Shown here: one piece after another, positions 5,286-19,438 of the stretch
Layout of the letters: each line of letters begins with the position of its first letter
How positions within the stretch are numbered: the first letter of the stretch is position 1
NCBI GenBank assembly: GCA_934613415.1
Contig: CAKTSY010000004.1
Span: 60,001 to 92,000, forward strand
Direction of reading: 5' to 3'
Length of the DNA: 32,000 nt
Source of the DNA: an uncultured Opitutales bacterium
GTDB taxonomy: Bacteria > Verrucomicrobiota > Verrucomicrobiia > Opitutales > Intestinicryptomonadaceae
The notes under the pieces: generated by a model
Databases searched by the model: none
Seen by the model: the letters and a program-made list of their open reading frames with translations, nothing else
Told to the model about the DNA's origin: nothing
Translations under genes and position numbers: made by a program

Positions 5286-5561
5286 ATGATAGGCACAAAA
5301 TACAGGCAAAAAGACAGGGTTATTTGCGACAAACAAAGCGGCAAAAAATACATACTTAGCGTTGTAAACGAATCGGAAACAAAATATCCCTACAACCCCA
5401 AAAAGCGCAAGTTAAAGACAAAATTTTCGTATACGCTAAAGGGTGTAAAAACAAAATCGGTTATCTTAAAAATAAACGCCTACAACTTTAGGGGCGAACG
5501 CTTTATAGAAAAAATCTTAAAAAACAATTTGTGCGACCTGCATATGCTGCTTCCAAAATAG
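5286..5561 (+). CDS. Hypothetical small lysine-rich protein (91 aa); weak call
   Basis: This is the only ORF in an otherwise empty ~600 bp gap. I recognise no motif. It converges on the K+ channel gene and may be non-coding. Confidence 0.25.
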   Translation: MIGTKYRQKDRVICDKQSGKKYILSVVNESETKYPYNPKKRKLKTKFSYTLKGVKTKSVILKINAYNFRGERFIEKILKNNLCDLHMLLPK

Positions 5562-5605
5562 CTGCAAATGTTTTTTTCCCCGTTTTTCGCATAAAAATTT
5601 ACGGT

Positions 5606-6340: not shown

Positions 6341-6450
6341 ATAATTTATATCGTAAAAACCGGTTTTTTGAAAAAGTTTTTATTTTTTACAAAAAAAGCT
6401 TGCAAAAATTTTTTAAATCTATTCCATAGGCATTTTAATAATTTGTTCGA

Positions 6451-6527
<77 letters not shown>

Positions 6528-6537
6528 ATTTCCATAA

Positions 6538-6572
6538 CCGCTCAAACAAAATTTGTTTGGGCGGTTTTTTTG
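6538..6572 (+). terminator. Rho-independent terminator after tRNA-fMet
   Basis: CCGCTCAAACAAA pairs with TTTGTTTGGGCGG (one G-U pair), loop ATT, then T7. Confidence 0.7.
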
Positions 6573-6717
6573 TTGCCACACCCAAAGCCACACCACGCTT
6601 TGCCCAAAGTTGAATTAACCAAACGCAACAGTTTGCCTTGCTTTTTACGAATACCCCCTTTGCCATTACAAAAGCTACAATGTAAACAAAACCTTTGCTC
6701 TGTTTTGCGTATATACA

Positions 6718-6753
6718 CAAAAAAAGGCGTTGCCCAACAATTAAAGCAACGCC
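6718..6753 (-). terminator. Rho-independent terminator after the AraC-family gene
   Basis: On the minus strand: GGCGTTGC, 12-nt loop, GCAACGCC (6726-6753), followed by T7 (the complement of the A run ending at 6725). It sits 23 nt beyond the stop at 6776. Confidence 0.6.
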
Positions 6754-6775
6754 AAATTTGCAAAATAAAACTTCT

Positions 6776-7654
6776 TTAAACTGCAACATCTCTTTTGGGA
6801 GACGTGCCAAAATAGCGTTTATACTCGCGGCTAAATTGCGTTGGGCTTTCGTAGCCTACGGCGTAGGCTGCGTTGGCAACGGTTTCGTTTTCGGAAATCA
6901 TAAGCCTTTTTGCCTCGTGCAAGCGCAAATTTTTTTGGTATTGAATTGGGCTAATAGACGTAACTTTGCGAAAGTGCCTATGGAAAGTTGTAGGCGCCAT
7001 ATTAACATATTTTGCAAGTTCGTCTATCCTTACGGGTTTTTTAAAGTTTGTTTTAAGCCAGCCTACCGCCTTTGTTATTTGGTTGCTTTGTGTGCCGAAT
7101 GTGCAAAGTTGGCGAACGTGCCTGCCCATTGGGCTAATAAGCAGCCTTGTGTAAATTTCGTTTACAATAACGGGGGCAATAACGGGAATGTCGTCGGGGG
7201 TGTCTAGCAACTTTAGCAGGCGCAAAAAGGCGTCCATTAAGCCCTCGTCGGCATCGGCAACCGCAAGGCCGTTAAAAACCTTGTCGCCCCTAATTTTGTC
7301 GAGCGGCATTTCGGCAATCATTTGCGAAATTTGCTTTAGGTTTAAATCTAGCGAAATTGTAAGCAACGGCTTTTGCGGCGTTGCCTGCGCAATGCAGCTA
7401 GTTCCCGGTATATCTATGCCCGAAACTAGGCACTGGTTTTCGTGATACGCCGTTTCTATATTGCCCGTAATTGCGCGTTTGCTGCCCTGTATAATAAGTA
7501 TAATTTTTGGGGAATAAACGCACCTATTATATCCGTTTTCATGCTCTATTCTATGTGCATAAAAACCCGGAATTGCCGTTTCGACAAAGGCTTCGTGCGG
7601 CAACAATTTTAAGACCAAGCGTTTTAACTGCGAATTTAAACTTGCAATGCCCAT
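6776..7654 (-). CDS. AraC family transcriptional regulator with AraC_N-type (YqhC-like) sensor domain, 292 aa
   Basis: The C-terminal double HTH is typical of AraC/XylS (IDELAKYVNMAPTTFHRHFRKVTSISPIQYQKNLRLHEAKRLM...AVGYESPTQFSREYKRYFGTSP). The N-terminal ~170 aa resembles the non-cupin AraC_N ligand domain. Confidence 0.9.
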   Translation of the reverse strand: MGIASLNSQLKRLVLKLLPHEAFVETAIPGFYAHRIEHENGYNRCVYSPKIILIIQGSKRAITGNIETAYHENQCLVSGIDIPGTSCIAQATPQKPLLTISLDLNLKQISQMIAEMPLDKIRGDKVFNGLAVADADEGLMDAFLRLLKLLDTPDDIPVIAPVIVNEIYTRLLISPMGRHVRQLCTFGTQSNQITKAVGWLKTNFKKPVRIDELAKYVNMAPTTFHRHFRKVTSISPIQYQKNLRLHEAKRLMISENETVANAAYAVGYESPTQFSREYKRYFGTSPKRDVAV

Positions 7655-7680
7655 ATTCTTAGTACTATTTGCCCTACATA

Positions 7681-7708
7681 CTTATAAAAAGATTTAAAAT
7701 GTGTCAAA
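7681..7708 (-). promoter_or_regulatory. Candidate promoter for the AraC gene (-35 TTGACA 7708-7703, -10 TATAAG 7686-7681)
   Basis: Read from the minus strand in the 90-bp gap between the cbiO stop and the araC start. The 16-nt spacer fits, but the TATAAG -10 is imperfect, so the call is weak. Confidence 0.3.
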
Positions 7709-7744
7709 TAAAAATTTGGCAGAATTGGGCAGAAATTTTTCGGC

Positions 7745-8443
7745 CTAAATTAGCCCGCAGTTTTCCAAAAGGCTTTCATTTGCAAGAATGTCTTTGGTTT
7801 TGCCGAAGGCGGCTACGCTGCCTTTGTTTAAAACCGCGCAATGGCTGCAAAGGTTTAAGGCAAATTCCAAATCGTGGGTGGTCATTAAAATTGTTTTGTT
7901 TAGCGACTTTAAAATGTCGGCGGTTTGCCTTTTGCACTTGCAGTCTAGCAAAGCGGTAGGCTCGTCTAAAAGCAAAACTTCGGGCTGGGCAGCCAAAACC
8001 GAGCAAATTGCCACCCTCTTTTTTTCGCCGTCCGACAAATTTTGTATTGGTCGTTTTGCCAAGTGCATAATCCCATATTCTTCCATAAGTGCGTTTACAT
8101 TTTCAAACGCAATTTGTTGCGGAACTTTGCGGTTTAAAAAGCCGAACGCAATATCTTCTTGCACGGTAGAAAAGAAAAGCTGGTCGTCGCAATTTTGAAA
8201 TACAAGCCCCGCATAACTTCTTATTTTAGACAGGCTATGCTTTTCAACCATAACCGAATTTACATAAATTTTGCCGCTTTTTGGCTGCAAAAGCCCCATA
8301 ATGGAATGCAACAATGTTGTTTTGCCCGCCCCGTTTGCGCCTATAACCGCGCAACATACCCCCTTTTCGATTTCAAGCGAAAGCGAATTTATTGCGGCAA
8401 CATTTCCGCTGCGGCAAACTGTAAGGTTTTCAATTTTTATCAT
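7745..8443 (-). CDS. cbiO: ECF transporter ATPase component (CbiO/NikO/LarO-like), 232 aa
   Basis: ORF 7745..8665 trimmed to ATG 8443 (MIKIENLTVCRSGNVAAINSLSLEIEKGVCCAVIGANGAGKTTLL). It has Walker A, the LSDGEKKRV signature and Walker B LLLDEP. It overlaps the upstream cbiQ stop by 14 nt. Confidence 0.9.
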   Translation of the reverse strand: MIKIENLTVCRSGNVAAINSLSLEIEKGVCCAVIGANGAGKTTLLHSIMGLLQPKSGKIYVNSVMVEKHSLSKIRSYAGLVFQNCDDQLFFSTVQEDIAFGFLNRKVPQQIAFENVNALMEEYGIMHLAKRPIQNLSDGEKKRVAICSVLAAQPEVLLLDEPTALLDCKCKRQTADILKSLNKTILMTTHDLEFALNLCSHCAVLNKGSVAAFGKTKDILANESLLENCGLI

Positions 8444-9206
8444 AAAAAACGCCTTCAATAAAAAGTGGAATATTAAAAAATCTAAAAAGCAAACACAACA
8501 TAGCAAACGCGACAAAAAACACGGTATCTTTAACGGTAAATTTTTGCGTTTGCTGTTTAAAGTGGCGAACATCGAAATTGCGACACTGCATTGCGTTATA
8601 TATTGCATTTGCGCGGGCAAGCGTACGCATAAAAAGGCTTGCCAGCATTGCAGGGTAATGCGCAAATTTTATTTTTGGGTGCATAGGGCTGCGCAGTGCA
8701 TAGGCTTTTGCCATTCTAGCTGCCTCGCTACAAACGCAGTTTAAATAGCGTATTGTAAGCATAATTTGCATAACAACAATACACGGAATTTTAAGCTTTG
8801 CCAAAGCCCCTGCAATGTCGTTTACAGGGGTTGTCTTTGCAAAAATTACGGATACTGCCACGCACAAATACGCCTTTAAAAGCAGTGTAAAAAGCGAAAG
8901 CACCCCAAAACTTACGCCAAAAGAAAAAAGTTTAAAGGCAGTTTTTGTGTCTATAAAAACGTTTGCAGCCCCAGCAAAAAACGCAATGCAAAGCGCGGGC
9001 ATAGATTTCCTTAAAATTTCGCCTTGGCTAATTTTGCACAACGCCCCCAAAAACAGCGGGAAAGCAAAATATATTACAATCCCAAAAGCGTTGTATTTGC
9101 CGAACGAAACAACGCATATAACAAACACAAACAACGCCGCCAATTTTGCCAAGGCGTTGTAAGTAGTATGCATATTGCAGCTTTTTGCCTGCAAGCTACT
9201 TTCCAT
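8430..9206 (-). CDS. cbiQ: ECF transporter transmembrane T component (CbiQ/LarQ-like), 258 aa
   Basis: A polytopic membrane protein positioned between the CbiM and CbiO homologues. ATG 9206 overlaps the cbiM stop by 11 nt. An alternative ATG lies at 9173. Confidence 0.8.
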   Translation of the reverse strand: MESSLQAKSCNMHTTYNALAKLAALFVFVICVVSFGKYNAFGIVIYFAFPLFLGALCKISQGEILRKSMPALCIAFFAGAANVFIDTKTAFKLFSFGVSFGVLSLFTLLLKAYLCVAVSVIFAKTTPVNDIAGALAKLKIPCIVVMQIMLTIRYLNCVCSEAARMAKAYALRSPMHPKIKFAHYPAMLASLFMRTLARANAIYNAMQCRNFDVRHFKQQTQKFTVKDTVFFVAFAMLCLLFRFFNIPLFIEGVFYDKN

Positions 9207-10191
9207 TTAAGTTTGTTTTTGATACAAATTTAAAGGCAAAATACCCGACAAACAAAAACGCCGCCGTTATAAGCGAACCCATTAACCCCGCTACCGATGT
9301 AGACGCCTTGCCGCCCAACATTGGGGTAGAATAGTCGCTAAAAATTGCGGTGTTGTTTGCAATGTTTTTGCTTGCTAAATGGGCTGCGCTTTTTTCTGCC
9401 GCAATTTCGGTTTTCGCGGTGTTTTGCAAAGACCACTCAAGCCCATCGGGCTTTTCGCTAGCGTAAATAGAAAATAGCGAACCAAAAACAACCGCTGCAA
9501 TAGACATAAGCAAAACCGCGCTTTTTTTTGAAGGCATAAATTTGCCTTCGGTTAGCTTGTTAAAAACAAATGCGTTTGAATCTTTAATAGCCAACAACAC
9601 AAAGGCGGTGGCAACGCCCTCTACAAGGCCTATGGCCAAATGTATTGGCTGCATAAACAAAAGAAATGTTTTAAAATCCAGCTCGGTTATGTCGGAACAC
9701 AAAGTTTCTAGCACAACGCAAAACGAGCCGCACTGCAAAGTTAGCACGCAAGACAAAACGCCTGCGGCTATAATCGCAAACTTGCCCCTGCTTTTGCGCA
9801 CAATGGACACAAAAAGCAAGGGGTAAGCAACAAAACACGCAAAAAACGCCATATTAAAAGCGTTGCACCCAAACGCCAAAATTCCGCCGTCGGCAAAAAA
9901 CAACGCCTGTATAAACAGCACCGAACTAAGCGCAATAAAGGCGGGGTATGCCCCCAGTGTTGCTGCCAGCAAAATTCCGCCGCCAATGTGCCCGCTAGAC
10001 CCCGTTGCCGGTATAGAAAAATTAAGCATTTGCGCCGCAAACACAAACGCCGCCATAACGCCCATTAAAGGAATATTTAGCTTGTCGAAATTTTGGGAGG
10101 CCTTTTTTGCCGAATATAGCAGCAAAAGCAAAAAAACAACCCACATTATACCCCCAACCTTTGCGGAAACAAGGGCATCGGACATATGCAT
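9196..10191 (-). CDS. cbiM: Ni/Co ECF substrate-capture component: CbiM/NikM fused to a C-terminal PDGLE (CbiN-like) domain, Lar(MN)-like
   Basis: Start chosen at ATG 10191 so that the N-terminus is MHMSDALVS. CbiM/NikM proteins need an N-terminal Met-His for metal ligation. The alternative ATG at 10212 adds MLNPVLA. The C-terminal ~110 aa contains EKPDGLEWS flanked by two TM helices, which is the PDGLE domain. Confidence 0.85.
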   Translation of the reverse strand: MHMSDALVSAKVGGIMWVVFLLLLLYSAKKASQNFDKLNIPLMGVMAAFVFAAQMLNFSIPATGSSGHIGGGILLAATLGAYPAFIALSSVLFIQALFFADGGILAFGCNAFNMAFFACFVAYPLLFVSIVRKSRGKFAIIAAGVLSCVLTLQCGSFCVVLETLCSDITELDFKTFLLFMQPIHLAIGLVEGVATAFVLLAIKDSNAFVFNKLTEGKFMPSKKSAVLLMSIAAVVFGSLFSIYASEKPDGLEWSLQNTAKTEIAAEKSAAHLASKNIANNTAIFSDYSTPMLGGKASTSVAGLMGSLITAAFLFVGYFAFKFVSKTNLNGK

Positions 10192-10217
10192 TGCAAGAAC
10201 AGGATTTAGCATTTTTT

Positions 10218-10958
10218 TTAACTCCTTAAAATTAAGTGTGCATTAAAGGCGGCTCCAAAACCGTTGTCGATATTTACAACGCTAACCCCGTTTGCGCACG
10301 AATTTATCATTGAAAGCAGCGTCGAAAGTCCGCCAAAATTTGCGCCGTAGCCTACGCTTGTTGGCACTGCAATTACAGGAACTGCAACAAGCCCAGCCAA
10401 AACCGAAGCCAACGCCCCTTCCATTCCGGCAACTGCAATTACAACTTTTGCCTTTCTGATTTCCTCTATATTGCCAAGCAGCCTGTGCAAACCAGCTACC
10501 CCACAATCGAAGTAAGTTTTAGCAGAATCCCCCAAAAAATTTAAAGTAAGCTCGGCTTCCTTTGCAACGGGTATGTCGGAAGTGCCAGCAGTTACAATGG
10601 CAACTTCGCCCAACGAATTTTTCGGGCAGCTTTCGCCAATTTGAATAATTTTTGCAGACTTTTCGTATATGCAATTTTCGAAATTTTTTTGCATCAGTTC
10701 TGCAATTGCTTCGCTTGCGCGTGTTATAAGAACGCCCTTTTCGCGCGCCAAAATTTTGCGGCAAATTTCAAGGCATTGCTCGGGCGTTTTCGAAGCTCCG
10801 TATACGATTTCGCCTACTCCCGTTCTGCGTTTTCTATCGAAGTCTATTTTTGTGTGCCCCATATCGCAGCAAAACAAATTTTCTATTTGTTTGCCCGCGT
10901 TTTGCAAATTAAGGGTGCCGTTTTTGTAGGCGTTTAAAATTTCAAAAATTTCGTTCAT
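10218..10958 (-). CDS. larB: Nickel-pincer cofactor biosynthesis protein LarB (NaAD carboxylase/hydrolase, PurE-like), 246 aa
   Basis: Contains DFDRKRRTGVGEIVYGASKT and VAIVTAGTSDIPVAKEA, and has an AIR-carboxylase-like C-terminal half. Its start forms an ATGA overlap with the larE stop (10955-10958). Confidence 0.9.
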   Translation of the reverse strand: MNEIFEILNAYKNGTLNLQNAGKQIENLFCCDMGHTKIDFDRKRRTGVGEIVYGASKTPEQCLEICRKILAREKGVLITRASEAIAELMQKNFENCIYEKSAKIIQIGESCPKNSLGEVAIVTAGTSDIPVAKEAELTLNFLGDSAKTYFDCGVAGLHRLLGNIEEIRKAKVVIAVAGMEGALASVLAGLVAVPVIAVPTSVGYGANFGGLSTLLSMINSCANGVSVVNIDNGFGAAFNAHLILRS

Positions 10959-11746
10959 ATCTTTACATTCATAGAGCCCGTTTTATAACCTGCCAAATCT
11001 AGCGAGCAGCGTTTAAAACCCAAGTCGACAGCCTCTTTGTTTATCTTGGCACTGTTGCACACAACCTTTTCAAAATCGCATATGTTGCATTCTATCCTTA
11101 CCGAATTTCCGTCGGTTCTTGCCCTTACCTTGCCTATGTTAAGGCTTCGCAAATAGCTTTCAAATTTGTCGATTCTTTGCAGAATGTTTGGTTCTATTTT
11201 TTTGCCGTGTTCAAGCCTTGTAAGCAGGCAGGCATAGGCGGGTTTGTCGGCAACCTCGGGCAGAATTTCGCGTGCAATTTGCCTTATTTGGTCTTTGCCA
11301 ATTCCGCATTCCAAAAACGGGCTTTTTACGCCAAGCTCTTTTAAAGCCTTCATTCCGGGGCGATAATCCGACAAATCGTCGGCGTTTGTACCGTCGCATA
11401 AAACACCTGCGTTTAGCGAAGCTGTTTTGTTTTTAAATTCGCAAAAAATATTTTTTTTGCACAGATAGCAACGTTCGGGCGGGTTGTATAAAATTTCGCT
11501 TGGTATGTTTTCTCTTACAACTTTTACAAGTTTTACCCCAAGCTTTTTGCAAAGATTTTCGGCAAAAGAACATTCGCTTTGCATTGCATAGGGCATAAAG
11601 GCTGTAATTGCAGTGCAGTTTTTTGCCCCCAGTGTTTGCGCGCAAAACGCCAATAGCACAGAGCTGTCTAGCCCGCCCGAAAGCGCAATGCAAACGCTTC
11701 CAAAGCTTTCTATAAGTTTTTTTAAGCTATCTATTTTCGAATTCAT
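10955..11746 (-). CDS. larE: ATP-dependent sulfur transferase LarE (PP-loop ATP pyrophosphatase), 263 aa
   Basis: PP-loop SGGLDSS sits near the N-terminus (VCIALSGGLDSSVLL). Cysteines lie in ERCYLCK and PAYACLLTR. It overlaps the larC stop by 20 nt. Confidence 0.9.
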   Translation of the reverse strand: MNSKIDSLKKLIESFGSVCIALSGGLDSSVLLAFCAQTLGAKNCTAITAFMPYAMQSECSFAENLCKKLGVKLVKVVRENIPSEILYNPPERCYLCKKNIFCEFKNKTASLNAGVLCDGTNADDLSDYRPGMKALKELGVKSPFLECGIGKDQIRQIAREILPEVADKPAYACLLTRLEHGKKIEPNILQRIDKFESYLRSLNIGKVRARTDGNSVRIECNICDFEKVVCNSAKINKEAVDLGFKRCSLDLAGYKTGSMNVKI

Positions 11747-13004
11747 TGCATAGAATTTTTCTTACAACGCCTATAGCAAGCCCCGTTTTGTCTGAAATTT
11801 TTTTGCAGTCGTCAAACTCGGGCTTTGCCTTTGTTTTGCCGTTAAACTCGGCAACTTTAAAATTAACTTCGCCTAACGACGACTTAAATTTTACACATTC
11901 ACGCGGAATACTAAGCCTGTTTGCCTCAACAATTCTAACGCCCAAGGTGGTGGAATTTTCGAAAACAAATTGTGCAACTTTTTCGGCGTCATTTTCGCAA
12001 ACTAGCGCGCACAGCTTTGTGCCCAAGCGCGACTTTTTCATAGCAATAGATTCCCTCCAAACATCTAACGCGCCAACAGAAAACAGCTTTTCGCACAAAT
12101 ACGAAAGGTCTTCGGCTGGCATATCGTCGATATTGCATTCTATAACCGCCATTTTTTCGCGCTTAAATTTGCAATTTGCATCTTCTTGCGTTTCAAGCAG
12201 CGTAATCCTTAAAATGTTGGGCAGTTCGGGAGAATTGCGGTGCCCAATGCCCACGCCGTTGGCTATGATTTTACCGCTAATTCTTTCGGAAAAGCCGTCG
12301 CACAAAGCGGCAATAATTGCCGCCCCCGTAGGCGTTGTGCATTCGTGCATAGCACCGTTAAATTTTACGGGCAGCCCCTTTACTATTTCGGCTGTGGCAG
12401 GGGCAGGAACGGGCATAACTCCATGCGCGCATTTTACAGTGCCGCCCCCAAGCTCTACTGCAGAACATATAAATTTGTCTACACAAAGCATATCGGCGCA
12501 AACGGCTGCTGCAACTATGTCTATTATCGAATCTATTGCGCCTACTTCGTGAAAGCAAACTTCGTCTATATTTTTGTTGTGAACCTTTGCCTCGGCCAGC
12601 GCAATTTTCTCGAATATTTTTAAGGCGTAATTTTTTGCGCGCTGCGAAATACCCGAATTTTCTATAACCTTTTTTATATCGGCATACGAACGGTGAAAAT
12701 GTGAATGCTCGTGAACGTGTTCGCAGTGGAAATGCCCGTAAATGTGCGAATGTATATGCGCGTGCAAATGTTCGTGTTCCGGCGAATGCTCGCTACAGAT
12801 ATGTTCAGATTCGTCTATCACTTCGGCCTTTGTGCCCGAAATTCCGCCGCGCATATCGCGGCTAAACTTTAGCTGCCAACCGCTTAAATTAAGCTTTTGC
12901 AATTCCTTAATAAGTGCGTCTTTGTCTACACCCAAATCCACAAAAGCCGCAATATTCATATCGCCGCTAATGCCCGCAAAACAGTCGTAATATAAAACTT
13001 TCAT
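11727..13004 (-). CDS. larC: Nickel insertion (cyclometallase) protein LarC, single uninterrupted frame, 425 aa
   Basis: ORF 11727..13037 trimmed to ATG 13004 (MKVLYYDCFAGISGDM...), the conserved LarC N-terminus. A His-rich tract EHSPEHEHLHAHIHSHIYGHFHCEHVHEHSHFH is present, and the C-terminal LarC2-like part is in the same frame. Confidence 0.9.
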   Translation of the reverse strand: MKVLYYDCFAGISGDMNIAAFVDLGVDKDALIKELQKLNLSGWQLKFSRDMRGGISGTKAEVIDESEHICSEHSPEHEHLHAHIHSHIYGHFHCEHVHEHSHFHRSYADIKKVIENSGISQRAKNYALKIFEKIALAEAKVHNKNIDEVCFHEVGAIDSIIDIVAAAVCADMLCVDKFICSAVELGGGTVKCAHGVMPVPAPATAEIVKGLPVKFNGAMHECTTPTGAAIIAALCDGFSERISGKIIANGVGIGHRNSPELPNILRITLLETQEDANCKFKREKMAVIECNIDDMPAEDLSYLCEKLFSVGALDVWRESIAMKKSRLGTKLCALVCENDAEKVAQFVFENSTTLGVRIVEANRLSIPRECVKFKSSLGEVNFKVAEFNGKTKAKPEFDDCKKISDKTGLAIGVVRKILCNEFENR

Positions 13005-13055
13005 ATCAAAAAAAACCTGATTGCATACTATGCGCAAAAGCCGTAAATGTCGTTT

Positions 13056-14834
13056 TTATTTTATTGCCGCAAACTTTTCGTCTATAATTTTTATGCATTG
13101 CTCGGGCGTGCCCGCGTTTTTGCATGCGCTTTCCATTGGGCACATTCCGTCGCGCTTTGCATTTTGTATGAAAGGCACAAGGTTTTTATACGAAACATCT
13201 ACCCTTGCCTTCTTTAACATCGCCAAAGCGGGTCGGCTTAAAGTTTCGGCATACAGTTGCGAAACCGCCCCCATTGCAAAAATTGCTGCCGCCGCCTTGC
13301 CAACCGCCTTGTCGGCAACAATTGCGCCCTTTAGCAGTGCGGGCTCGTTTTTGTATATTTTATAAAGTTCGTCTAAGCCGCGCCCTGTGTAGGTGCGAAT
13401 ATCGCCATTGCCAATAACAAGAGTATAGTTCTTGCCCTCTTCGGCAAACTTTGCCTTTACGTCGCCAATTAAAGCCGCCGTACGCTTTAGATTTTTAACA
13501 TAGGCGTCTATGCGGCGAAGCTCTTTGGGAATATCTATACCCTGCGGGCAGTGCGGGCGGCATTGGTCGCAACCCGTGCAGTGACTTGCCTGCCTAAGTT
13601 TTGGGACGGAACGGTCGTAGCCAACAAGGTAGGCGCGGCGCGCCATTGCGTAGTTTTTGTCCAAAGTGCTTTCGGGCGTTAAACGCTCGTTTAGGCATTT
13701 GTTGTAGTGCAGCAAAATTGCGGGAATGTCCAGCGCATACGGGCACGGCATACAATATTTGCAGTCGTTGCAGGGTATGTTGTTAAACTCGAGCATAGTT
13801 TTTGCAATTTTTTCCAAAAATTCAAAATCTTGGTCGGTAAGCGGCTTTAGCGGCGCATAACTGCGAAGGTTGTCTTTTAAATGCTCCATTTTTGCCATGC
13901 CGCTAAGTACGGTTAAAACATTCGGGAAAGTTCCCGCAAAGCGGAATGCCCACGAAGCCACGCTGCGGTCGGGCTCTTTTTGCTTAAATTCGGGAACTAT
14001 TGTATGCGGTATAGACGAAAGCCTGCCGCCCAAAAGGGGCTCCATTATAACGGCGGGAATGTTGCGCTTTTCAAGCTCTCTATACAAATACTCGGCGTTT
14101 GTATTGCTTTTGTTTATCTCTTTTGCGTGCTTCCAGTCTATGTAGTTTAGCTGAATTTGCACAAAGTCCCATTTGTATTCGTCGTGCTTTGAAAGCAGGT
14201 AGTCGAAAACCTTTATGTCGCCATGATACGAAAAGCCGAGATTGCGTATTTTGCCCTTTTTGCGTTCCTCCAACAAAAAGTCTAAAATGCCGTTGTCTAT
14301 ATAGCGTTTTTTTAGTGAGTCCATGCCCGAACCCGTACCTACCGAATGCAAAAGCATATAGTCGATATAGTCCACCCTAAGGTTTTTAAACGAGTCTTCG
14401 TACATCTTAATAGAAGCCTCGCGCGAGTGCGTAGCCGTCGCAAAATTAGAAAGCTTTGTGGCTATAAAATATTTATTGCGCGGGTGTCTGCTTAACGCAA
14501 TGCCTGTCGCCTTTTCGGATTGCCCCCTGCAATATACCGGAGACGTATCAAAATAGTTTACGCCGTGCGCAATGGCATAGTCTACAAGCTCGTTTACGGC
14601 GTTTTGGTCTATAATGCCGCCGGCTTCCCTTGCGGTTTTGCCGTCTATTGAAGGCCAGCGCATACACCCAAAGCCCAAAAGCGAAACCTTTTCTTTTGTC
14701 TTGGGGTTTTCGCGCATAGTCATTTCGCCGTAATTTTCGGTATTTGAATTGTCGGAACACCCAAACAATGCAGCCGAAGCCGCCGTTGCCGAAATTCCCT
14801 TAATAAAAGTTCTTCTTTTAAATTTGTTTTCCAT
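13056..14834 (-). CDS. Predicted Tat-exported lipoprotein: aldo/keto reductase + 2x[4Fe-4S]-type Cys motifs + C-terminal DUF1893 (TM1506-like) domain, 592 aa
   Basis: The N-terminus MENKFKRRTFIKGISATAASAALFGC carries a twin-arginine motif (RRxFIK) and a lipobox (LFGC). AKR motifs are GFGCMRWP, FDTSPVY, ATKL and DYMLLH, so the D-Y-K-H tetrad is present. Fe-S motifs are CNDCKYCMPCP and CTGCDQCRPHCP. The last ~141 aa (13059..13481) match my recollection of DUF1893: ...GAIVADKAVGKAAA...CPME. Confidence 0.85.
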   Translation of the reverse strand: MENKFKRRTFIKGISATAASAALFGCSDNSNTENYGEMTMRENPKTKEKVSLLGFGCMRWPSIDGKTAREAGGIIDQNAVNELVDYAIAHGVNYFDTSPVYCRGQSEKATGIALSRHPRNKYFIATKLSNFATATHSREASIKMYEDSFKNLRVDYIDYMLLHSVGTGSGMDSLKKRYIDNGILDFLLEERKKGKIRNLGFSYHGDIKVFDYLLSKHDEYKWDFVQIQLNYIDWKHAKEINKSNTNAEYLYRELEKRNIPAVIMEPLLGGRLSSIPHTIVPEFKQKEPDRSVASWAFRFAGTFPNVLTVLSGMAKMEHLKDNLRSYAPLKPLTDQDFEFLEKIAKTMLEFNNIPCNDCKYCMPCPYALDIPAILLHYNKCLNERLTPESTLDKNYAMARRAYLVGYDRSVPKLRQASHCTGCDQCRPHCPQGIDIPKELRRIDAYVKNLKRTAALIGDVKAKFAEEGKNYTLVIGNGDIRTYTGRGLDELYKIYKNEPALLKGAIVADKAVGKAAAAIFAMGAVSQLYAETLSRPALAMLKKARVDVSYKNLVPFIQNAKRDGMCPMESACKNAGTPEQCIKIIDEKFAAIK

Positions 14835-14864
14835 ATTAAAAAATCTTTCGTTAAAAAAGTTTGT

Positions 14865-16382
14865 TTACAATATGTTGTGAACCGAAATTGCCTCTACGCA
14901 AATTGCCGAAAGCGGACGCGCCGGACACAGATTTTCGCATGCGCCGCAGCCTATGCAACGCGCTTCGTCTACAACGGGCACCTTGCGAGATTTCGGGTTT
15001 TTGGCGTCTTTGGGCACCATTGTAATTGCACTTGTAGGACACTGTCTAAAGCAGTTGTCGCACTGCATTTCGTCGGTATTTACTATGCAGCGGCTTAAAT
15101 GCACTTTTGCCATGCCAATTTGAATTGAAGACTTTTCCGCCACGCTTACGGGCAAAATTGCGCCGGTTGGGCAAACCTTTGAACACTCAATGCAATCGGT
15201 TGCGCAATAGCCGCGCAAATAGCTCATATTAGGCTGCATAAAATTGCCCAGTTTAGCGCTAGGCTCTAAAACGTGCGAAGGACACGCCGAAACGCAAAGC
15301 TGGCATGCTGTGCATTTTTCCGACAAATGCGCCGCGCTTTGCGCGCCTGCGGGAACAAGCGGAATTTCCCTTTCTGGGTTCTTGCGTGGTTTAATGGGCG
15401 CAAAACCGCCGTCTACAGTCTTTTCGGCGGCGTTTGCCGTGGCCGATGCCGCCACAGTAAACAATGTCGCAAAAAAGCCGCGCCTGCTGCTAGATTTGCC
15501 TAAATCGACCTTTTTGGGCGAAAGCTTGTTTGCCGAATTTTTCAAAACGCCCTCGTTTTTCTTACCCAAAGCAAACTTATACGAAATTGCAGAATTCCTG
15601 CAATTTTTTATGCAGTTAAAGCAATCTACACAGCGAGAATAGTCTATTTCGTGCGCTTTGGGATTTATGCATTTTGCCTTGCAGTTTCTTGCACACAAAC
15701 CGCACGAATTGCATTTCGACAAATTTATGATTGGTCTAAAAAATGCAAATTTCGAGAAAAAGCCCAAAAATGTGCCAACAGGGCAAACCGTGTTGCAATA
15801 ACCCCTACCCGTACGCCATGCAAAAATTGCAACCACCGCAAAAGTTGCCAACGCTACCGCAAAAATTGCAAAGCCCTTAAACCAGAGTTCAACAGGGTAA
15901 AATGTGTAGCCGCCAGCCTTTTCCGAGAAAAACGACAACGCGTTTTCGCCCAACACCCAAATTGGGGCAAATAAATTCGATGCAATTCTGCCGTATGCGC
16001 TATAGGGCGCAATTAGACCCGCCACCGAAACAAACCCAAGGGCAAATACGGCAACAAAGGCGGCCAAAAAGGCAACTCTTACCGCAGTTTTCGGCTTTGC
16101 ATAGGCAAACTTGTTGCGCTTGCGCGAGGCCGCTATGTGCGAAACAATATCTTGAAAAACACCCAAAGGACAAATAACGGAACAATATATGCGGCCAAAA
16201 AGTAGCGTCAGCAAAAGCAAAATTGCCACCACCAAAAAGTTTGCCGCAAGCAGCGCGGGCAAAAACTGCATTTTGGCAAAAAAGCCGATTTCATTTTGCG
16301 CCGTGCCCGAAAAATCGACAAACAGCCATGTTACCGCGCAAAAGAGAACCGCGGCAAAAACAATCCTTAATCTGCGTAACAT
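14865..16382 (-). CDS. Membrane polyferredoxin: NapH/MauN-like N-terminal half fused to a NapG/MauM-like tetra-cluster ferredoxin half, 505 aa
   Basis: The N-terminal half has TM helices with GRIYCSVICPLG and CNTVCPVG plus CNSCGLCARNC and CVDCFNCIKNC. An internal SSSRRGFFATLFTVAASATANA segment (aa ~297-318) looks like a NapG Tat leader. It is followed by CTACQLCVSACP, CIECSKVCP, CDNCFRQCP and CIGCGACENLCP, laid out like my recollection of E. coli NapG. Confidence 0.85.
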   Translation of the reverse strand: MLRRLRIVFAAVLFCAVTWLFVDFSGTAQNEIGFFAKMQFLPALLAANFLVVAILLLLTLLFGRIYCSVICPLGVFQDIVSHIAASRKRNKFAYAKPKTAVRVAFLAAFVAVFALGFVSVAGLIAPYSAYGRIASNLFAPIWVLGENALSFFSEKAGGYTFYPVELWFKGFAIFAVALATFAVVAIFAWRTGRGYCNTVCPVGTFLGFFSKFAFFRPIINLSKCNSCGLCARNCKAKCINPKAHEIDYSRCVDCFNCIKNCRNSAISYKFALGKKNEGVLKNSANKLSPKKVDLGKSSSRRGFFATLFTVAASATANAAEKTVDGGFAPIKPRKNPEREIPLVPAGAQSAAHLSEKCTACQLCVSACPSHVLEPSAKLGNFMQPNMSYLRGYCATDCIECSKVCPTGAILPVSVAEKSSIQIGMAKVHLSRCIVNTDEMQCDNCFRQCPTSAITMVPKDAKNPKSRKVPVVDEARCIGCGACENLCPARPLSAICVEAISVHNIL

Positions 16383-16414
16383 TGAACAATCCTTTTGTTA
16401 GATTAACTTCAATA

Positions 16415-16443
16415 TTTATATTACGTTTGCCGCTTTTTGTAAA
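16415..16443 (-). promoter_or_regulatory. Candidate sigma70-type promoter of the polyferredoxin-AKR-lar-cbi operon (-35 TTTACA 16443-16438, 17-nt spacer, -10 TATAAA 16420-16415)
   Basis: Read from the minus strand about 35-60 nt upstream of ATG 16382. Only motif-level support. Confidence 0.4.
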
Positions 16444-16544
16444 TATATATTTCTTTCAAAAATCTGCCTAATTGTACCAAAACAGAGTTTTTTTACACGA
16501 ACAAAAAAACAAATATTTTAGGCTTTATGCGCAAAAACGCCGCT

Positions 16545-17162
16545 TTACTTTTTATTTTTTATGTAATTTTCCACCGTATTTTTATTTAGGGGGGTAGAAC
16601 TTACGCAGAAAATCACAGTCAACACCGTCTTAAAAAATATTTTTAAATCCAATAAAAGCGACATATTGTCGATATACTCAAAATCTTTCTTTAATTTTTT
16701 GTCGAGAGTAAGCTCGTTGCGGCCCGAAACTTGGGCAAGCCCACTCATACCCGGCAAAACCGAACTGCGCTTTTGGTTTGCCTCTTCGCTTAGGGCTTTA
16801 ATTTCAAAATCCATAAAAGGCCTAGGCCCTATAAACGACATATCTCCTTTTAGAATGTTTATAAACTGCAAAATTTCGTCTAGGCTAGATTTGCGCAAAA
16901 AGGCACCCAATCTTGTAATTCTTTTGGCGTCGGGCAAAAGTTTGCCGTTTTTGTCTTTGGCGACAAGCATTGTTCTAACTTTATATAGCTTAAACACTTT
17001 GCCATTTAAGCCAACGCGGTTTTGAACAATAACCACGGGAGCCCCCATAAAAACGCGAACCAGAATCCAAATAACGGCAAACACAGGCAGCATAAGAAGC
17101 GTCAAAAACAAGGCGCCGATAAAATCAAGCGTCCTTTTTATATACCTTTTATACAAACCCAT
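16545..17162 (-). CDS. Bacterial sugar transferase (small monotopic polyprenyl-phosphate glycosyl-1-phosphate transferase, PglC/WbaP C-terminal type), 205 aa
   Basis: N-terminal re-entrant helix (KRTLDFIGALFLTLLMLPVFAVIWILV), then KLYKVRTM, DEILQFINILKGDMSFIGPRP and GMSGLAQVSGRN. Confidence 0.9.
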   Translation of the reverse strand: MGLYKRYIKRTLDFIGALFLTLLMLPVFAVIWILVRVFMGAPVVIVQNRVGLNGKVFKLYKVRTMLVAKDKNGKLLPDAKRITRLGAFLRKSSLDEILQFINILKGDMSFIGPRPFMDFEIKALSEEANQKRSSVLPGMSGLAQVSGRNELTLDKKLKKDFEYIDNMSLLLDLKIFFKTVLTVIFCVSSTPLNKNTVENYIKNKK

Positions 17163-17331
17163 AGCTTTACTACTCTTTGTCTTATATCGAATAAGCCATG
17201 AGACGCTAAATCATTTGCATAATTCGTCAAGCCAGAAATTGCCAGCCACAAGACACAACAACACACCCTTGCGAAAACAAGCACATTTTCCGCAATAACA
17301 CAAATTACCCAACTTTTTGTATATTAAATTG

Positions 17332-19413
17332 TTATTTATCCTTGCCTACTATCGTAACAGGCATAATTTTGTATCTTGTACGGCAGTCATCTATATTAAC
17401 TAGCATTGTAGATCTTTGAATTTCTTTTTGAAGCAACCTAGAAAGCTTTAAATTATGCTTTCTCATAGATTTTGCATATTCCATATTCAGCAATAATTTG
17501 TATAAATGCACAAAACCGCCTTTTATAGCGTCATTAAATACTTCAAAAGAATCGCCTTCGACCCCAATTGCAGTTGTTTCGATAGGCAAAACATAGCCCG
17601 TGTTTGTTGTTATTAAAACAAACATATGTCCAGGGATAATAACCAATGACGGATTTAAGCCTATAGACTTGGCAAAAGATGCAAACAATACGCTGCCGTC
17701 TACGCAATTTGCCTGATTAGAATATATAGATTCATCTATAAAGCGAACCCTTTGCGCGAACATAGTACTGTCTCTTGCAACGCTTTCTGTGGCACTACTA
17801 TACACAATTTTCCTATCCCTTAACACGCGCCAAAACGCATACATTTGGTCCATAACGCCCCTATCTCCTAATTGTTCGCCATCAAAATGTTTTATATATC
17901 CCTTTTGTATGGCTTCTTTGCGAAGCTCTTCTATTATAGGGTGGTTTTCGTTAACAAAGGCGGCAAACATACGCTTATAGTCGCGCACACCTTTGCCAAG
18001 CAAGCCGGGACCTGCAAGCAGCACATCGTTTACGGGATTTACTACCGCAGAAACTATAACCTTTTGTGTTTCCTTCTCGTTTACCTTATAGTTGATGGTA
18101 ATCGAAGTTTTATATGGATTTTTTACCTCCATTAGCTTTTTATTATTCCAGCTTATTACGGGGTAAAAATATATTTCTTTTCTGCCGTCTATTTTTACAA
18201 TGCAATCGTTCTCGGTTCTGTTTATTATACCGCACGAACTTTCTATAGTATACGAAAGCTTAATGTTTTCGAACCCATTGGCATCTTCAATATTTAGTTT
18301 AAAATATATAAAAGGATTTCCCGTTCCGTCTATATTTTTCAAATTTACCGCATTCCCATCGGTATACATATAGGGCGAATCGCTTGCAAACAAGTTTACG
18401 TCGGCAAGAAGCAAAGACGGAAAAATATTTTTATTAAATTCAACCCCCGTAGAAACGTCGTAAAAAATTTTTGCAGGGCAAATAGAAGAGAAAAAGCTGC
18501 GGTCTTTTTCGTAGTCGTTTACTTTGCATTTTATATTAAACCTTACCGACTCGGATTTTTCCAAACCTTTCAGGTAGTCGATACTAACGCCTAAAGGCGG
18601 GTTATACACATATTTTTCCGTTCCGTTTAGATGGATTTTTTCGGTAAAATCGCCACCTATAACGTGCTTCGATTCCACATCTATCTTAGCGTTTAACTCT
18701 AAAGTCTTAACCAAATTGGCTCGTCTGGGAACAATTTCTACGTTTATCAATTCGTTTGCGTACTTTTCGCCGGCAAGTATTCTGCCTCCGTATATTTTTG
18801 GAGGAATACTAATGTTTATATCCACTTTTGGCGTGTTGATATACTCTATATCTTCCTTGCACAACAAATTTATGTTCATTATAAACATGCGCTCTTTTTC
18901 GTCCACAAAAATCAAGCGGCCGCCGTCGTTGCTAAGAATTGCACCTCTTACAAACTGCCCTTTTTTGCTTTTCCAAACGCGCATCATATCGTCGCTTACA
19001 AACTCTTTTATTTTTTTGTTTATAATAGCTATTACGCGGTTGCCCTCCTCTACCATATCCACGCCTTCTTGGTAGATTTTTTCGCCTTCTCTTCGCGTGT
19101 TTTCCTGACTAAAATGTTGATAGTGCCCAGTTAACCCGCCACTCATTAACATCTTATAGTCTCTAGCGTTTCGCATTGCATCGCCCTGCTTAATTTTTTC
19201 CTTTCCAGACTTTATAAGTTTGTCTGCTTTTTTTCGGGCACTATACAACATTTCAACACGATTTATGCCGTATATCAACTCTAAGCGTTTATCCTCTTCT
19301 TGTGCGTTGCGAGAAGATTGTTTATAATAACTTCTTGTAGGAGAATAAGCTAGCAAATTGCCCGCAAATAAGAAACATACCAACAAATACACAAGTATTC
19401 TAGATGTGTGCAT
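17332..19413 (-). CDS. Secreted protein of unknown function with an SHD1-like domain and a possible C-terminal transglutaminase-like Cys/His core, 693 aa
   Basis: ORF 17332..19431 starts with TTG, so I prefer ATG 19413 (MHTSRILVYLLVCFLFAGNLLAYS, a signal peptide). MRVWKSKKGQFVRGAILSNDGGRLIFVDEKERMFIMNINLLCKEDIEYIN resembles the SLA1-homology SHD1 domain. The C-terminal QANCVDGSVLFASFAKSIGLNPSLVIIPGHMFV resembles a transglutaminase-core Cys...His arrangement (low certainty). Confidence 0.8.
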   Translation of the reverse strand: MHTSRILVYLLVCFLFAGNLLAYSPTRSYYKQSSRNAQEEDKRLELIYGINRVEMLYSARKKADKLIKSGKEKIKQGDAMRNARDYKMLMSGGLTGHYQHFSQENTRREGEKIYQEGVDMVEEGNRVIAIINKKIKEFVSDDMMRVWKSKKGQFVRGAILSNDGGRLIFVDEKERMFIMNINLLCKEDIEYINTPKVDINISIPPKIYGGRILAGEKYANELINVEIVPRRANLVKTLELNAKIDVESKHVIGGDFTEKIHLNGTEKYVYNPPLGVSIDYLKGLEKSESVRFNIKCKVNDYEKDRSFFSSICPAKIFYDVSTGVEFNKNIFPSLLLADVNLFASDSPYMYTDGNAVNLKNIDGTGNPFIYFKLNIEDANGFENIKLSYTIESSCGIINRTENDCIVKIDGRKEIYFYPVISWNNKKLMEVKNPYKTSITINYKVNEKETQKVIVSAVVNPVNDVLLAGPGLLGKGVRDYKRMFAAFVNENHPIIEELRKEAIQKGYIKHFDGEQLGDRGVMDQMYAFWRVLRDRKIVYSSATESVARDSTMFAQRVRFIDESIYSNQANCVDGSVLFASFAKSIGLNPSLVIIPGHMFVLITTNTGYVLPIETTAIGVEGDSFEVFNDAIKGGFVHLYKLLLNMEYAKSMRKHNLKLSRLLQKEIQRSTMLVNIDDCRTRYKIMPVTIVGKDK

Positions 19414-19438
19414 AAAAAAACCTTTTAGCAAACAGCTA

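Follow-up and report, generated by a model that had tools for sequence, protein, structure and literature searches.

[quoted passage not shown] The NPN-binding AKRs were found by way of larC neighbourhoods without larA. NphT holds NPN through His144, a ligand of the Ni, and through Lys200, to which the cofactor is tethered as a thioamide, and 40% of lar-linked AKRs have the His without the Lys (PMC13524815). The view that LarA-family enzymes are the only well-characterised users of NPN, which a sequence-only reading of the present locus had adopted, is therefore outdated. NphT itself is monomeric, soluble and cytoplasmic, and moves hydride from one substrate to another.

The lar operon of Lactobacillus plantarum comprises larA, larBCDE and larR(MN)QO, and its LarE is of the sacrificial type. 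To our knowledge, in the known NPN enzymes (LarA racemases, NphT and an ornithine cyclodeaminase) the hydride stays in the active site or moves between substrates, and we know of no nickel-pincer enzyme that passes electrons to the remainder of the cell or takes them from it. Glucose-fructose oxidoreductase (GFOR) of Zymomonas mobilis is a Tat-exported periplasmic sugar oxidoreductase with a non-dissociable nicotinamide-type cofactor that is loaded in the cytoplasm. It has a Rossmann fold, uses NADP in a ping-pong reaction between two sugars, and has neither Fe-S clusters nor a membrane partner.

The operon

The window (the whole stretch of 32,000 nucleotides analysed) contains eight ORFs packed head to tail on the minus strand between 7745 and 16382. 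These encode a polyferredoxin, an AKR, LarC, LarE, LarB and a CbiMN-Q-O ECF importer, and are listed here with the neighbouring elements.

16442..16470, minus strand: candidate sigma-70-like promoter, TAGGCA-17-TATATT, 9/12 matches, in the 162-nt gap upstream of the polyferredoxin gene
14865..16382, minus strand: polyferredoxin, 505 aa, a NapH-like/NapG-like fusion (Fer4_5 twice)
11727..13004, minus strand: larC, CTP-dependent Ni insertase; LarC1 202.8 bits (cut-off 90), LarC2 127.6 bits (cut-off 50)
10955..11746, minus strand: larE; TIGR00268 250.7 bits (cut-off 150), SGGLDS P-loop
10218..10958, minus strand: larB; NF033503 282.7 bits (cut-off 175)
9196..10191, minus strand: cbiM with a fused CbiN-like domain (PDGLE), both matched in Pfam; a Lar(MN)-like S component of an ECF importer, Met-His at the N-terminus (MHMSDA)
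8430..9206, minus strand: cbiQ, ECF T component (Pfam CbiQ match)
7745..8443, minus strand: cbiO, ECF ATPase (Pfam ABC_tran match)
6776..7654, minus strand: AraC_N/HTH_18 regulator (Pfam match), 90 nt downstream of the operon on the same strand
6726..6753, minus strand: intrinsic-terminator-like hairpin (10 bp and a T run), the only strong one, just past the AraC gene

All eight ORFs lie where the sequence-only reading had placed them, and its junction sizes match exactly. Gaps of 30 nt (polyferredoxin/AKR) and 51 nt (AKR/larC, with the larC ATG at 13004) are followed by overlaps of 20 nt (larC/larE) and 4 nt (larE/larB). The larB/cbiM junction is 26 nt, provided that cbiM starts at the methionine of MHMSDA (10191), and the remaining overlaps are of 11 nt (cbiM/cbiQ) and 14 nt (cbiQ/cbiO, with the cbiO ATG at 8443). 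The claim that no terminators intervene also held, as no terminator-like site was found in any intergenic gap of the operon. A promoter had been proposed ahead of the polyferredoxin gene, and a 9/12 site is indeed present there. It is, however, an ordinary match: 17 promoter-like sites were found, against 17.8 expected from shuffles, so the candidate does not constitute evidence.

The AraC-type gene is likely to be a local regulator, and is possibly the last gene of the operon unit. Homologues of it adjoin the polyferredoxin-AKR pair in loci L003 and L007 (51-55% identity) and L090 (98%); none is present at L092, L097 or L099.

NPN synthesis, predicted nickel uptake and the search for LarA

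All three enzymes of NPN synthesis, LarB, LarE and LarC, are present as equivalogs, the scores (for LarC, those of both models) exceeding the NCBIfam cut-offs. The larC product has a His-rich stretch. The LarE cysteines C93, C96 and C173 are of the CXXC-C type, and by this pattern LarE is assigned to the [4Fe-4S]-dependent catalytic type (PMC9283937). The NCBIfam scores of the importer genes are under the cobalt equivalog cut-offs, and its metal specificity is putatively Ni, as judged from gene context.

As in L. plantarum, therefore, larB, larC and larE are accompanied by an ECF importer of the fused M-N type with Q and O. The window operon differs in lacking larA, larD and larR, in having the CXXC-C rather than the sacrificial type of LarE, and in its prospective client, which has another fold and is predicted to occupy another compartment. 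The absence of LarA from operon and window, noted earlier from sequence, was borne out: no window ORF of at least 120 aa gave a Pfam match to the LarA family, and a tblastn search of the window with L. plantarum LarA returned nothing, even at E = 10. The seed was validated by its 945-bit match to 5HUQ. LarA was likewise not found in 180 loci (2.5 Mb), nor was it near any of the roughly 95 larC loci examined.

The AKR

The AKR is a protein of 592 aa matching Pfam Aldo_ket_red (1e-38, 130.6 bits) and TM1506/DUF1893 (3e-38). Its parts, all on the minus strand, are as follows.

14757..14834, minus strand: Tat signal KRRTFIK and lipobox LFGC (Cys26), from sequence motifs
13785..14723, minus strand: TIM-barrel domain, residues 38-350 (Pfam, alignments and AF2 model)
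13545..13772, minus strand: two ferredoxin-type Cys motifs, C355/358/361/364 and C419/422/425/429, predicted to bind 2x[4Fe-4S]
13074..13436, minus strand: DUF1893/TM1506-like domain, 131 bits, with matches to 1VK9 and 9E9A; deaminase-like fold

The domain assignments made previously (Tat signal and lipobox, two Fe-S motifs, DUF1893) hold with respect to both Pfam and motif conservation. R7, R8 and C26 do not vary among 28 homologues, the RR motif occurs in 119/120 top homologues, and PF10518 is precomputed for several homologues; export to the periplasm is predicted. Free NAD(P)H is out of reach of a Tat/lipobox protein; given the family-invariant twin arginine and lipobox, the AKR is predicted not to be located where this cofactor is available in free form. 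The eight Cys of the ferredoxin-type motifs are all invariant, and Fer4_17 scores above its cut-off. AF2 confidence is low over these motifs because clusters are not modelled, and pLDDT is mostly >90 over the barrel.

The C-terminal domain resembles TM1506 (PDB 1VK9, matched at 1e-17 with the family profile), but it is here fused to an AKR and predicted to be exported. By analogy, it may bind a nucleotide. It is missing from Bacteroidales paralogues of ~465 aa. Linkage of DUF1893 genes to genes for AKRs and a multi-TM protein has been noted before (Iyer et al. 2011, PMC3239186).

Comparison of the AKR with NphT

The window AKR shares with NphT the PF00248 TIM barrel, the position beside larB, larC and larE without larA (the NphT-type neighbourhood, with no larA within 20 ORFs), and the catalytic tetrad, which is kept and invariant as D96/Y101/K127/H163. 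It shares in addition the Ni-ligand His and a Ser/Thr two residues earlier. S202-Y203-H204 occupies the position of T142-G-H144 in NphT, S202 and H204 falling on T142 and H144 (HMMER, hhalign), and the equivalence of H204 and H144 was obtained with phmmer, hhalign and MAFFT. M264-E265 lies at the position of I199-K200 (HMMER, hhalign), so that the tether Lys is replaced by Glu. The His/Glu signature is invariant across >8000 homologues; among the top homologues His204 was present in 120/120, and 'ME' in 120/120. NphT W218/Y219 lack a clear counterpart.

The beta5 and beta7 residues contact the nicotinamide in canonical AKRs (AKR1 numbering). The canonical Ser-Asn-aromatic at beta5 and aromatic-Ser at beta7 are not found in the window protein, where S-Y-H and M-E stand instead; in the canonical AKRs of L003 and L112 those positions read SNF/SSM (GVSNF or GASSM) and WAP/YSP. 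The window AKR still has Q228, the canonical Gln, and an HLxDN motif of canonical type at the C-terminus; judged by sequence and fold, it is no more distant from NAD(P)-dependent L-galactose dehydrogenases and AKR11/14 than from NphT. In Foldseek comparisons with AKR11/14 its barrel gave TMt values (TM-score normalised to target) of 0.72-0.78, the PDB fold library used being older than 9YEB. Its AKR domain, of ~315 residues, is ~30 longer than that of NphT (~288) and ~23% identical to it. A further feature of the NphT type is a shortened cofactor cavity, from which the AMP moiety is excluded; the domain in the window is the longer one and keeps HLxDN. The window protein further differs from NphT in its Tat signal, lipobox, two Fe-S motifs, DUF1893 domain and dedicated membrane polyferredoxin, none of which is mentioned in the main text of PMC13524815.

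It had been suggested that a Lys/His pair in the AKR might tether NPN. The His is there (H204); the Lys is not, an invariant Glu (E265) standing in its place. This substitution puts the window AKR in the published 'His-only' class, which presumably binds the cofactor non-covalently. As 40% of lar-linked AKRs are His-only, the Lys tether defines the covalent subclass only. The proposal that the AKR is an NPN client thus gains support from the 2026 precedent, the Ni-ligand His and the conserved gene block, although the idea is no longer a new one. The features that run against an NPN reading include the Glu in place of the tether Lys, the missing W218/Y219 counterpart, the retention of Q228 and HLxDN, and a lar adjacency confined to one clade.

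The membrane polyferredoxin

The polyferredoxin combines four TM segments with two CX3CP and two Fe-S motifs; it also has an internal Tat-like anchor (SSRRGFF) and four more Fe-S motifs. It was earlier described as a NapH/NapG-like membrane electron-transfer protein, and the architecture supports this: a NapH-like 4-TM part with CX3CP motifs and two clusters (profile match at residues 165-275) precedes a NapG-like four-cluster domain that follows a Tat-like RR segment (match at residues 297-488). Scores are, however, far under the equivalog cut-offs, at 67.3 versus 234 for NapH and 74.8 versus 269 for NapG, and no nap genes are present in the window. The likeness to NapGH is therefore architectural only, a working analogy rather than membership. 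By that analogy, the protein would be expected to link the quinol/quinone pool to a periplasmic redox enzyme, but with both parts in one polypeptide and with the AKR as partner instead of NapAB.

Gene neighbourhoods in other genomes

The eight-gene block recurs, with different, unrelated flanks, in at least four other lineages, with LarC down to 53% identical. It was found at L090/L091 (LarC 80% identical), at L092/L093 (59%, with microcompartment genes upstream), at L097 (53%) and at L099/L100. In L097 and L099 nadD, encoding NaAD synthase, is inserted between the AKR gene and larC, and the fragments L101 and L113 show the order AKR/DUF1893-nadD-larC. The lar-linked AKRs all fall in one clade; P0006 was predicted from the AKR tree to be lar-linked, and its locus was then found to be so.

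Outside this clade the picture is different. In 80 genomes, mostly of Bacteroidales, whose AKRs share these invariant motifs, no lar gene lay within 10 kb, nor was one found in L003, L007 and L087-L089; three Opitutales-like relatives are among those lacking them. Linkage of the AKR to larBCE, whose recurrence had been proposed as a check, is a property of one clade. The Bacteroidales relatives keep the polyferredoxin-AKR pair alone within 10 kb. The coupling of AKR and polyferredoxin is well supported, a polyferredoxin homologue lying directly upstream of the AKR in 73/80 genomes.

Alternative explanations

We consider it probable that the operon is a self-sufficient module for a periplasmic, membrane-wired NPN oxidoreductase that is Fe-S-wired and quinone-linked. 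An unlikely alternative is that the adjacency is merely regulatory or accidental: larBCE-cbiMNQO would serve a LarA homologue or other NPN enzyme elsewhere, and the AKR would carry tightly bound NAD(P), as in GFOR, or no nicotinamide-type cofactor, with the Fe-S clusters and polyferredoxin performing the redox chemistry. Consistent with this, most family members, with identical motifs, lack lar genes within 10 kb; by sequence and fold the AKR domain is nearest to NAD(P)-dependent AKRs, with Q228 and HLxDN retained; and the LarA search covered the window and the 180 loci. An accident is difficult to reconcile with a full block kept in five lineages with different flanks, overlapping stop/start codons and an inserted nadD, and LarA was near none of the ~95 larC loci. 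With respect to NAD(P), beta5 has Y/F-His instead of the canonical Asn and aromatic, at the published Ni-ligand position, and single-electron exchange between NAD(P)H and Fe-S clusters requires a flavin, whereas no flavin domain is present.

The canonical Gln and HLxDN motif, together with the likeness to NAD(P)-dependent AKRs, mean that a dinucleotide, either NAD(P) or NPAD, could still be bound. It is rather improbable that the architecture is as proposed and the cofactor is the adenine-dinucleotide NPAD, held non-covalently in a full-length AKR cofactor tunnel. That possibility was raised for AKRs with extended cavities (PMC13524815), and an ornithine cyclodeaminase is reported to bind NPAD non-covalently. 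The longer AKR domain, the canonical C-terminal motif without the tether Lys, and the nadD inserted in two sister operons would all suit NPAD, but the LarB here is a standard equivalog, and LarB of that kind removes AMP by hydrolysis. A simple metal ion (Ni2+ or Fe2+) bound by His204 and Glu265, with the AKR as a mononuclear metalloenzyme that the Ni importer supplies, is very improbable. The invariant His and Glu do face the active site and a Ni/Co ECF importer is encoded in the operon; this explanation nevertheless leaves the conserved co-inheritance of larB, larE, larC and nadD unaccounted for, and His204 aligns with the pincer-nickel ligand of 9YEB.

Proposed function

The window AKR is, then, most likely a respiratory-chain-linked variant of the Ni-dependent AKRs reported in 2026. 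In such an NPN oxidoreductase module, CbiMN-Q-O would bring in Ni, and NaAD would be converted in the cytoplasm to NPN by LarB, [4Fe-4S]-type LarE and LarC. The AKR barrel would take up the cofactor non-covalently, held by His204 and its neighbours with Glu265 where NphT has the tether Lys, and would additionally gain two [4Fe-4S] clusters. The folded holo-AKR would be exported by Tat and then attached by its lipid anchor, a route recalling that of GFOR, which is also Tat-exported with a cytoplasm-loaded cofactor but differs in fold, Fe-S content and membrane partner. In the periplasm, hydride would be exchanged at the pincer C4 with a carbonyl, alcohol or aldose substrate. Electrons would leave the AKR clusters one at a time for the NapG-like, periplasmic part of the polyferredoxin, whose NapH-like part in the membrane would join the menaquinone pool. 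We know of no case in which Fe-S clusters oxidise or reduce NPN by single electrons, and this counts against the mechanism. The suggestion that the AKR is recharged from the quinone pool is unsupported. Oxidation of an alcohol or aldose against menaquinone thermodynamically favours flow the other way; we consider net substrate oxidation with quinone reduction the more likely direction.

If this account is correct, the coupling of a pincer enzyme to the quinone pool by way of Fe-S clusters would represent a new kind of nickel chemistry. The absence of flavin from Fe-S-containing AKRs would be explained, as would the occurrence of larBCE without larA in so many genomes, and a very abundant gut-bacterial gene pair, polyferredoxin and Tat-AKR, would gain a function.

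Other proteins encoded beside lar genes

A broader and more tentative idea, which we hold to be somewhat doubtful, is that NPN acts like a flavin, as a hydride/single-electron converter, in periplasmic enzymes wired to menaquinone by Fe-S and NapGH-like proteins. This design would be shared by two unrelated scaffolds beside larCEB, the AKR-Fe-S protein and a Tat-exported DUF362 protein of the LarA clan, and would define a new class of Ni-dependent respiratory dehydrogenases/reductases; DUF362 would then be a further candidate NPN client. If every member of the AKR family depended on the pincer, this class would be common among gut Bacteroidota and Verrucomicrobiota. Two further observations also favour the NPN-oxidoreductase reading of the window operon. 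In L112, independent Fe-S AKRs adjoin cbiMQO-larCE, one with the same SFH/ME signature and no signal peptide, and another with His plus Lys. As a parallel architecture, the Tat-exported DUF362 protein, which belongs to the Pfam clan of LarA, lies beside larCEB in 24/80 related larC loci, 20 of these 24 also having the same type of polyferredoxin, and in L102 the genes form a co-directional operon, DUF362-polyferredoxin-cbiMQO-larCEB.

Organization of the operon

The eight ORFs of the operon are separated by gaps of 30, 51 and 26 nt or overlap by 20, 4, 11 and 14 nt, as the sequence-only reading had reported, and in agreement with that reading no terminator-like hairpin was detected in any intergenic gap. 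The promoter that it proposed could not be substantiated: the site is an ordinary consensus match only, and the promoter scan performed at chance level. No riboswitch was identified by Rfam in 5500-17500, where a tRNA was the only match. The features of the region are as follows.

6451-6524, plus strand: tRNA (Rfam, 58.6 bits), just downstream of the AraC_N-type regulator gene and the strong terminator
6776-7654: AraC_N-type regulator gene, followed by a strong terminator-like hairpin, the sole strong one
7745-16382, minus strand: eight ORFs, for a polyferredoxin, an aldo/keto reductase (AKR), LarC, LarE, LarB, CbiMN, CbiQ and CbiO
17332-19431, minus strand: 699-aa ORF with an N-terminal hydrophobic segment and zero Pfam matches, conserved in a 98%-identical contig (L001)

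The NCBIfam equivalog cut-offs are exceeded by LarB, by LarE and by each half of LarC. The transporter genes encode a CbiM fused to a PDGLE domain, a CbiQ and an ECF-type ATPase. The 505-aa polyferredoxin begins with a NapH-like part, with four hydrophobic segments, two CX3CP motifs and two clusters predicted from motifs; an internal SSRRGFF segment follows, and then a NapG-like part with four further motif-predicted clusters. Its scores do not come near the Nap equivalog cut-offs, and it would therefore, by analogy, work like NapGH without being NapGH. The reported absence of LarA from the window was confirmed, both Pfam and a tblastn search with the Lactobacillus plantarum LarA seed (validated against 5HUQ) being negative.

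The AKR and its relationship to nickel-pincer enzymes

The 592-aa AKR protein carries two ferredoxin-type motifs, with eight invariant cysteines in all, in addition to its Aldo_ket_red and DUF1893/TM1506 domains. Its N-terminus reads KRRTFIK...LFGC, in which neither the twin arginines nor the lipobox cysteine vary among 28 homologues, and the RR motif is found in 119 of the 120 top homologues. In the AF2 model the barrel and the DUF1893 domain are confident and the cluster-binding linker is poor. The family has at least 8000 matches and occurs in a form of about 600 aa with DUF1893 and one of about 465 aa without it, the latter mostly from Bacteroidales. The DUF1893 domain, which may bind a nucleotide by analogy with TM1506, is dispensable in many paralogues. 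In some Alistipes loci (L033, from 12679 onward; L069, from 10268 onward) the DUF1893 match is unfused, a two-domain AKR being encoded some 1.3 kb upstream of it, which suggests that DUF1893 is a separable module.

LarA had been taken to be the only well-characterized user of the nickel-pincer nucleotide (NPN), a view since overtaken by Semersky et al. (Nat Chem 2026; PMC13524815). The AKR described there, NphT (PDB 9YEB), binds the pincer mononucleotide covalently via Lys200, with His144 on the nickel, and an AKR as NPN client is therefore already a known kind. Among lar-linked AKRs, 34% have the His plus the Lys and 40% the His only (PMC13524815). The main text of that paper mentions no Fe-S clusters, ferredoxins, signal peptides or periplasm. 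Our literature search returned nothing useful on lar genes in Bacteroides/Bacteroidetes or on characterized periplasmic Fe-S AKRs.

NphT is the third-best PDB sequence match of the window AKR (1.8e-11). With the 9YEB numbering fixed from the aligned fragment as chain minus 3, NphT T142/H144 (GITGHGH) aligns with window S202/H204 (GFSYHGD). 9YEB was not among the alignments listed in a PDB search with the AKR family profile, and the C-terminal half alone gave no match. Lys200, beyond residue 178, was reached by recovering NphT-family sequences via the aligned fragment and comparing profiles with hhalign, which placed NphT I199-K200 (MTIKT) on window M264-E265 (VIMEPL). Of the Lys/His pair that the sequence-only reading had envisaged as a tether for NPN, the nickel-ligand His is thus present (H204) and the tethering Lys is missing, its place being taken by E265. 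With the ligand but not the covalent tether, the window AKR belongs to the published His-only class. His204 and Glu265 are kept in all 120 top homologues, and the respective motifs in 75 and 78 of the 80 genome loci; canonical AKRs from the same neighbourhoods have GVSNF/GASSM and WAP/YSP at these positions. The AKR tetrad is also retained.

The enzyme is as near to L-galactose dehydrogenases, AKR11 and AKR14 as to NphT, in sequence as well as fold, and represents an independent AKR lineage. A Foldseek search of the PDB (library to April 2026, without 9YEB) did not separate NphT-like from canonical AKRs.

Conservation of the lar linkage

Among named LarC proteins, the nearest come from Opitutales. 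The full block, from the polyferredoxin and AKR/DUF1893 through larC, larE and larB to cbiMN-Q-O, recurs in L090/L091, L092/L093, L097 and L099/L100, with LarC proteins that are 80%, 59% and 53% identical to that of the window in the first three. It recurs with unrelated flanks, and a chance juxtaposition of the lar module was rejected on this ground; in L092/L093 the flanks are microcompartment genes and the AraC gene is missing. Between L090/L091 and the window, identity is 94-98% for the polyferredoxin, the AKR and the AraC protein and only 80-85% for LarC, LarE and CbiQ; the lar-cbi module is either faster-evolving or has been swapped through recombination.

In some of these blocks the AKR gene and larC are separated by nadD, which encodes nicotinate-nucleotide adenylyltransferase and scores above the TIGR00482 cut-off. 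The product of NadD, NaAD, is the substrate of LarB. The window operon is without nadD, which was located as follows.

L097:4396-5022: nadD
L099:11152-11757: nadD
L100:3991-4596: nadD
L101 and L113: nadD also present

Scanning metagenomes with a LarC alignment yielded 80 loci (L101-L180) with LarC proteins 40-58% identical to that of the window, two of them fragments of the AKR/DUF1893-nadD-larC arrangement. In a further locus (L112:2846-12536) cbiM-Q-O-larC-larE come after three AKR genes. Of these, one encodes an Fe-S AKR with the His and Lys of NphT (GLTNH/CMKAL), a second an Fe-S AKR with the window-like SFH/ME signature and no signal peptide, and the third a canonical AKR; cytoplasmic Fe-S AKRs are therefore also lar-linked.

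The AKR was also used as the starting point, in 80 species genomes (one from Opitutales, the remainder mostly Bacteroidales). In 73 of the 80 the gene immediately upstream of the AKR is that for the polyferredoxin, and in none are larB, larC, larE or cbiM found within 10 kb. The pair again occurred without lar genes in five more look-ups, except for L004, in which a stand-alone 186-aa LarC2 (C-terminal LarC) domain (L004:7798-8358; 127 bits) is encoded 3 nt upstream of the polyferredoxin-AKR/DUF1893 pair; no larB, larE or full larC is present at that locus. In a neighbour-joining tree the lar-linked AKRs form one clade, apart from the unlinked Opitutales-like and Bacteroidales clades, and the lar linkage of one homologue, P0006, was forecast from the tree and then confirmed by look-up. 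It is apparent that the linkage of this AKR to larBCE, which the sequence-only reading had proposed as a check, is conserved within the lar-linked clade but not family-wide; physical linkage throughout the family is ruled out.

An AraC_N/HTH_18 regulator gene lies beside the polyferredoxin-AKR pair in the window (6776-7654), L090, L003 (5210-6091) and L007 (near 7160), and is joined in L003 by genes for a CMD-cupin protein, a small canonical AKR and a flavodoxin-like protein. AraC_N regulators, such as YqhC of Escherichia coli, respond to aldehydes.

Proposed mechanism and alternatives

The reading that we consider most likely, with moderate confidence, is that of a periplasmic, Fe-S-wired pincer AKR. 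Nickel would be imported through CbiMN-Q-O and the pincer cofactor made by LarB, a CXXC-C type LarE and LarC; the AKR would take up the cofactor non-covalently, together with two [4Fe-4S] clusters, and the folded lipoprotein would be exported via Tat. In the periplasm, hydride would be exchanged between pincer and substrate, and the clusters of the AKR would pass single electrons to the NapG-like domain, from there to the NapH-like domain and on to the menaquinone pool. In terms of standard potentials, alcohol or aldose oxidation with menaquinone reduction is downhill and quinol-driven carbonyl reduction is not, so that we consider the dehydrogenase direction the more likely one. Sugars are reasonable first candidate substrates, given that NphT acts on them and that the closest solved relatives belong to the aldose dehydrogenases.

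The lar module might instead serve a client elsewhere, the AKR carrying NAD(P) or nothing. The canonical Gln (Q228) and an HLxDN motif of canonical type are indeed kept in the AKR; a search with the L. plantarum seed found no LarA in the 80 larC loci or the other fetched loci (2.5 Mb in total), and we regard this alternative as unlikely. Somewhat less probable again is a variant of the main reading in which the cofactor is the adenine-dinucleotide form, NPAD, rather than the mononucleotide, NPMN; for His-only AKRs, non-covalent binding or NPAD has been proposed (PMC13524815). His204 and Glu265 are kept in all 120 top homologues, and the respective motifs in 75 and 78 of the 80 genome loci; canonical AKRs from the same neighbourhoods have GVSNF/GASSM and WAP/YSP at these positions. 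That the AKR contains a simple metal site is very improbable.

The observation made in the sequence-only reading is real and its interpretation largely right, but following the nickel-pincer AKRs of 2026 it is no longer categorically new. To judge from its sequence, the window AKR is probably an exported, Fe-S-wired, quinone-linked, His-only form of those enzymes, a combination that would be new.

A parallel architecture with DUF362

A DUF362 protein with a twin-arginine signal is encoded beside larC in 24 of the 80 metagenome larC loci. It is accompanied by a NapH/NapG-fusion polyferredoxin in 20 of these, the remaining four contigs ending at that point. Individual examples are listed here.

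L094:7275-9751: DUF362 beside larC-larE-larB (contig look-up)
L095:13564-16474: DUF362 beside larC-larE-larB (contig look-up)
L102:4799-12720: co-directional DUF362-polyferredoxin-cbiM-cbiQ-cbiO-larC-larE-larB operon

The L102 operon corresponds exactly to that of the window, except that DUF362 takes the place of the AKR. That two unrelated exported scaffolds, with the same type of polyferredoxin, both occur beside larCEB is the strongest contextual argument presented here, and suggests that the polyferredoxin serves a pincer enzyme and is not there by accident. DUF362 may constitute an additional class of pincer-cofactor client that has yet to be described, and the parallel suggests that the class as a whole is broader than has been described. 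DUF362 and the LarA N-terminal domain share a Pfam clan, CL0471 (PMC11770544), on which their relationship rests, since no meaningful match emerged when a DUF362 alignment was compared by hhalign with one LarA sequence. In the PDB, the DUF362 protein is without a sequence relative.

Two other proteins recur in these neighbourhoods. Where cbiMQO is absent, larB is often followed by the gene for a His-rich multi-TM protein of about 234 aa (13 larC loci), which may provide an alternative route of nickel uptake. Two copies are given below.

L095:12810-13511: no Pfam match
L116:11921-12625: weak DsbD_2 Pfam match

In loci of the DUF362 type, the gene for a WbqC-like protein (PF08889) is repeatedly found downstream of larB, in 17 of L101-L180 (e.g. 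L142:4706-5326).
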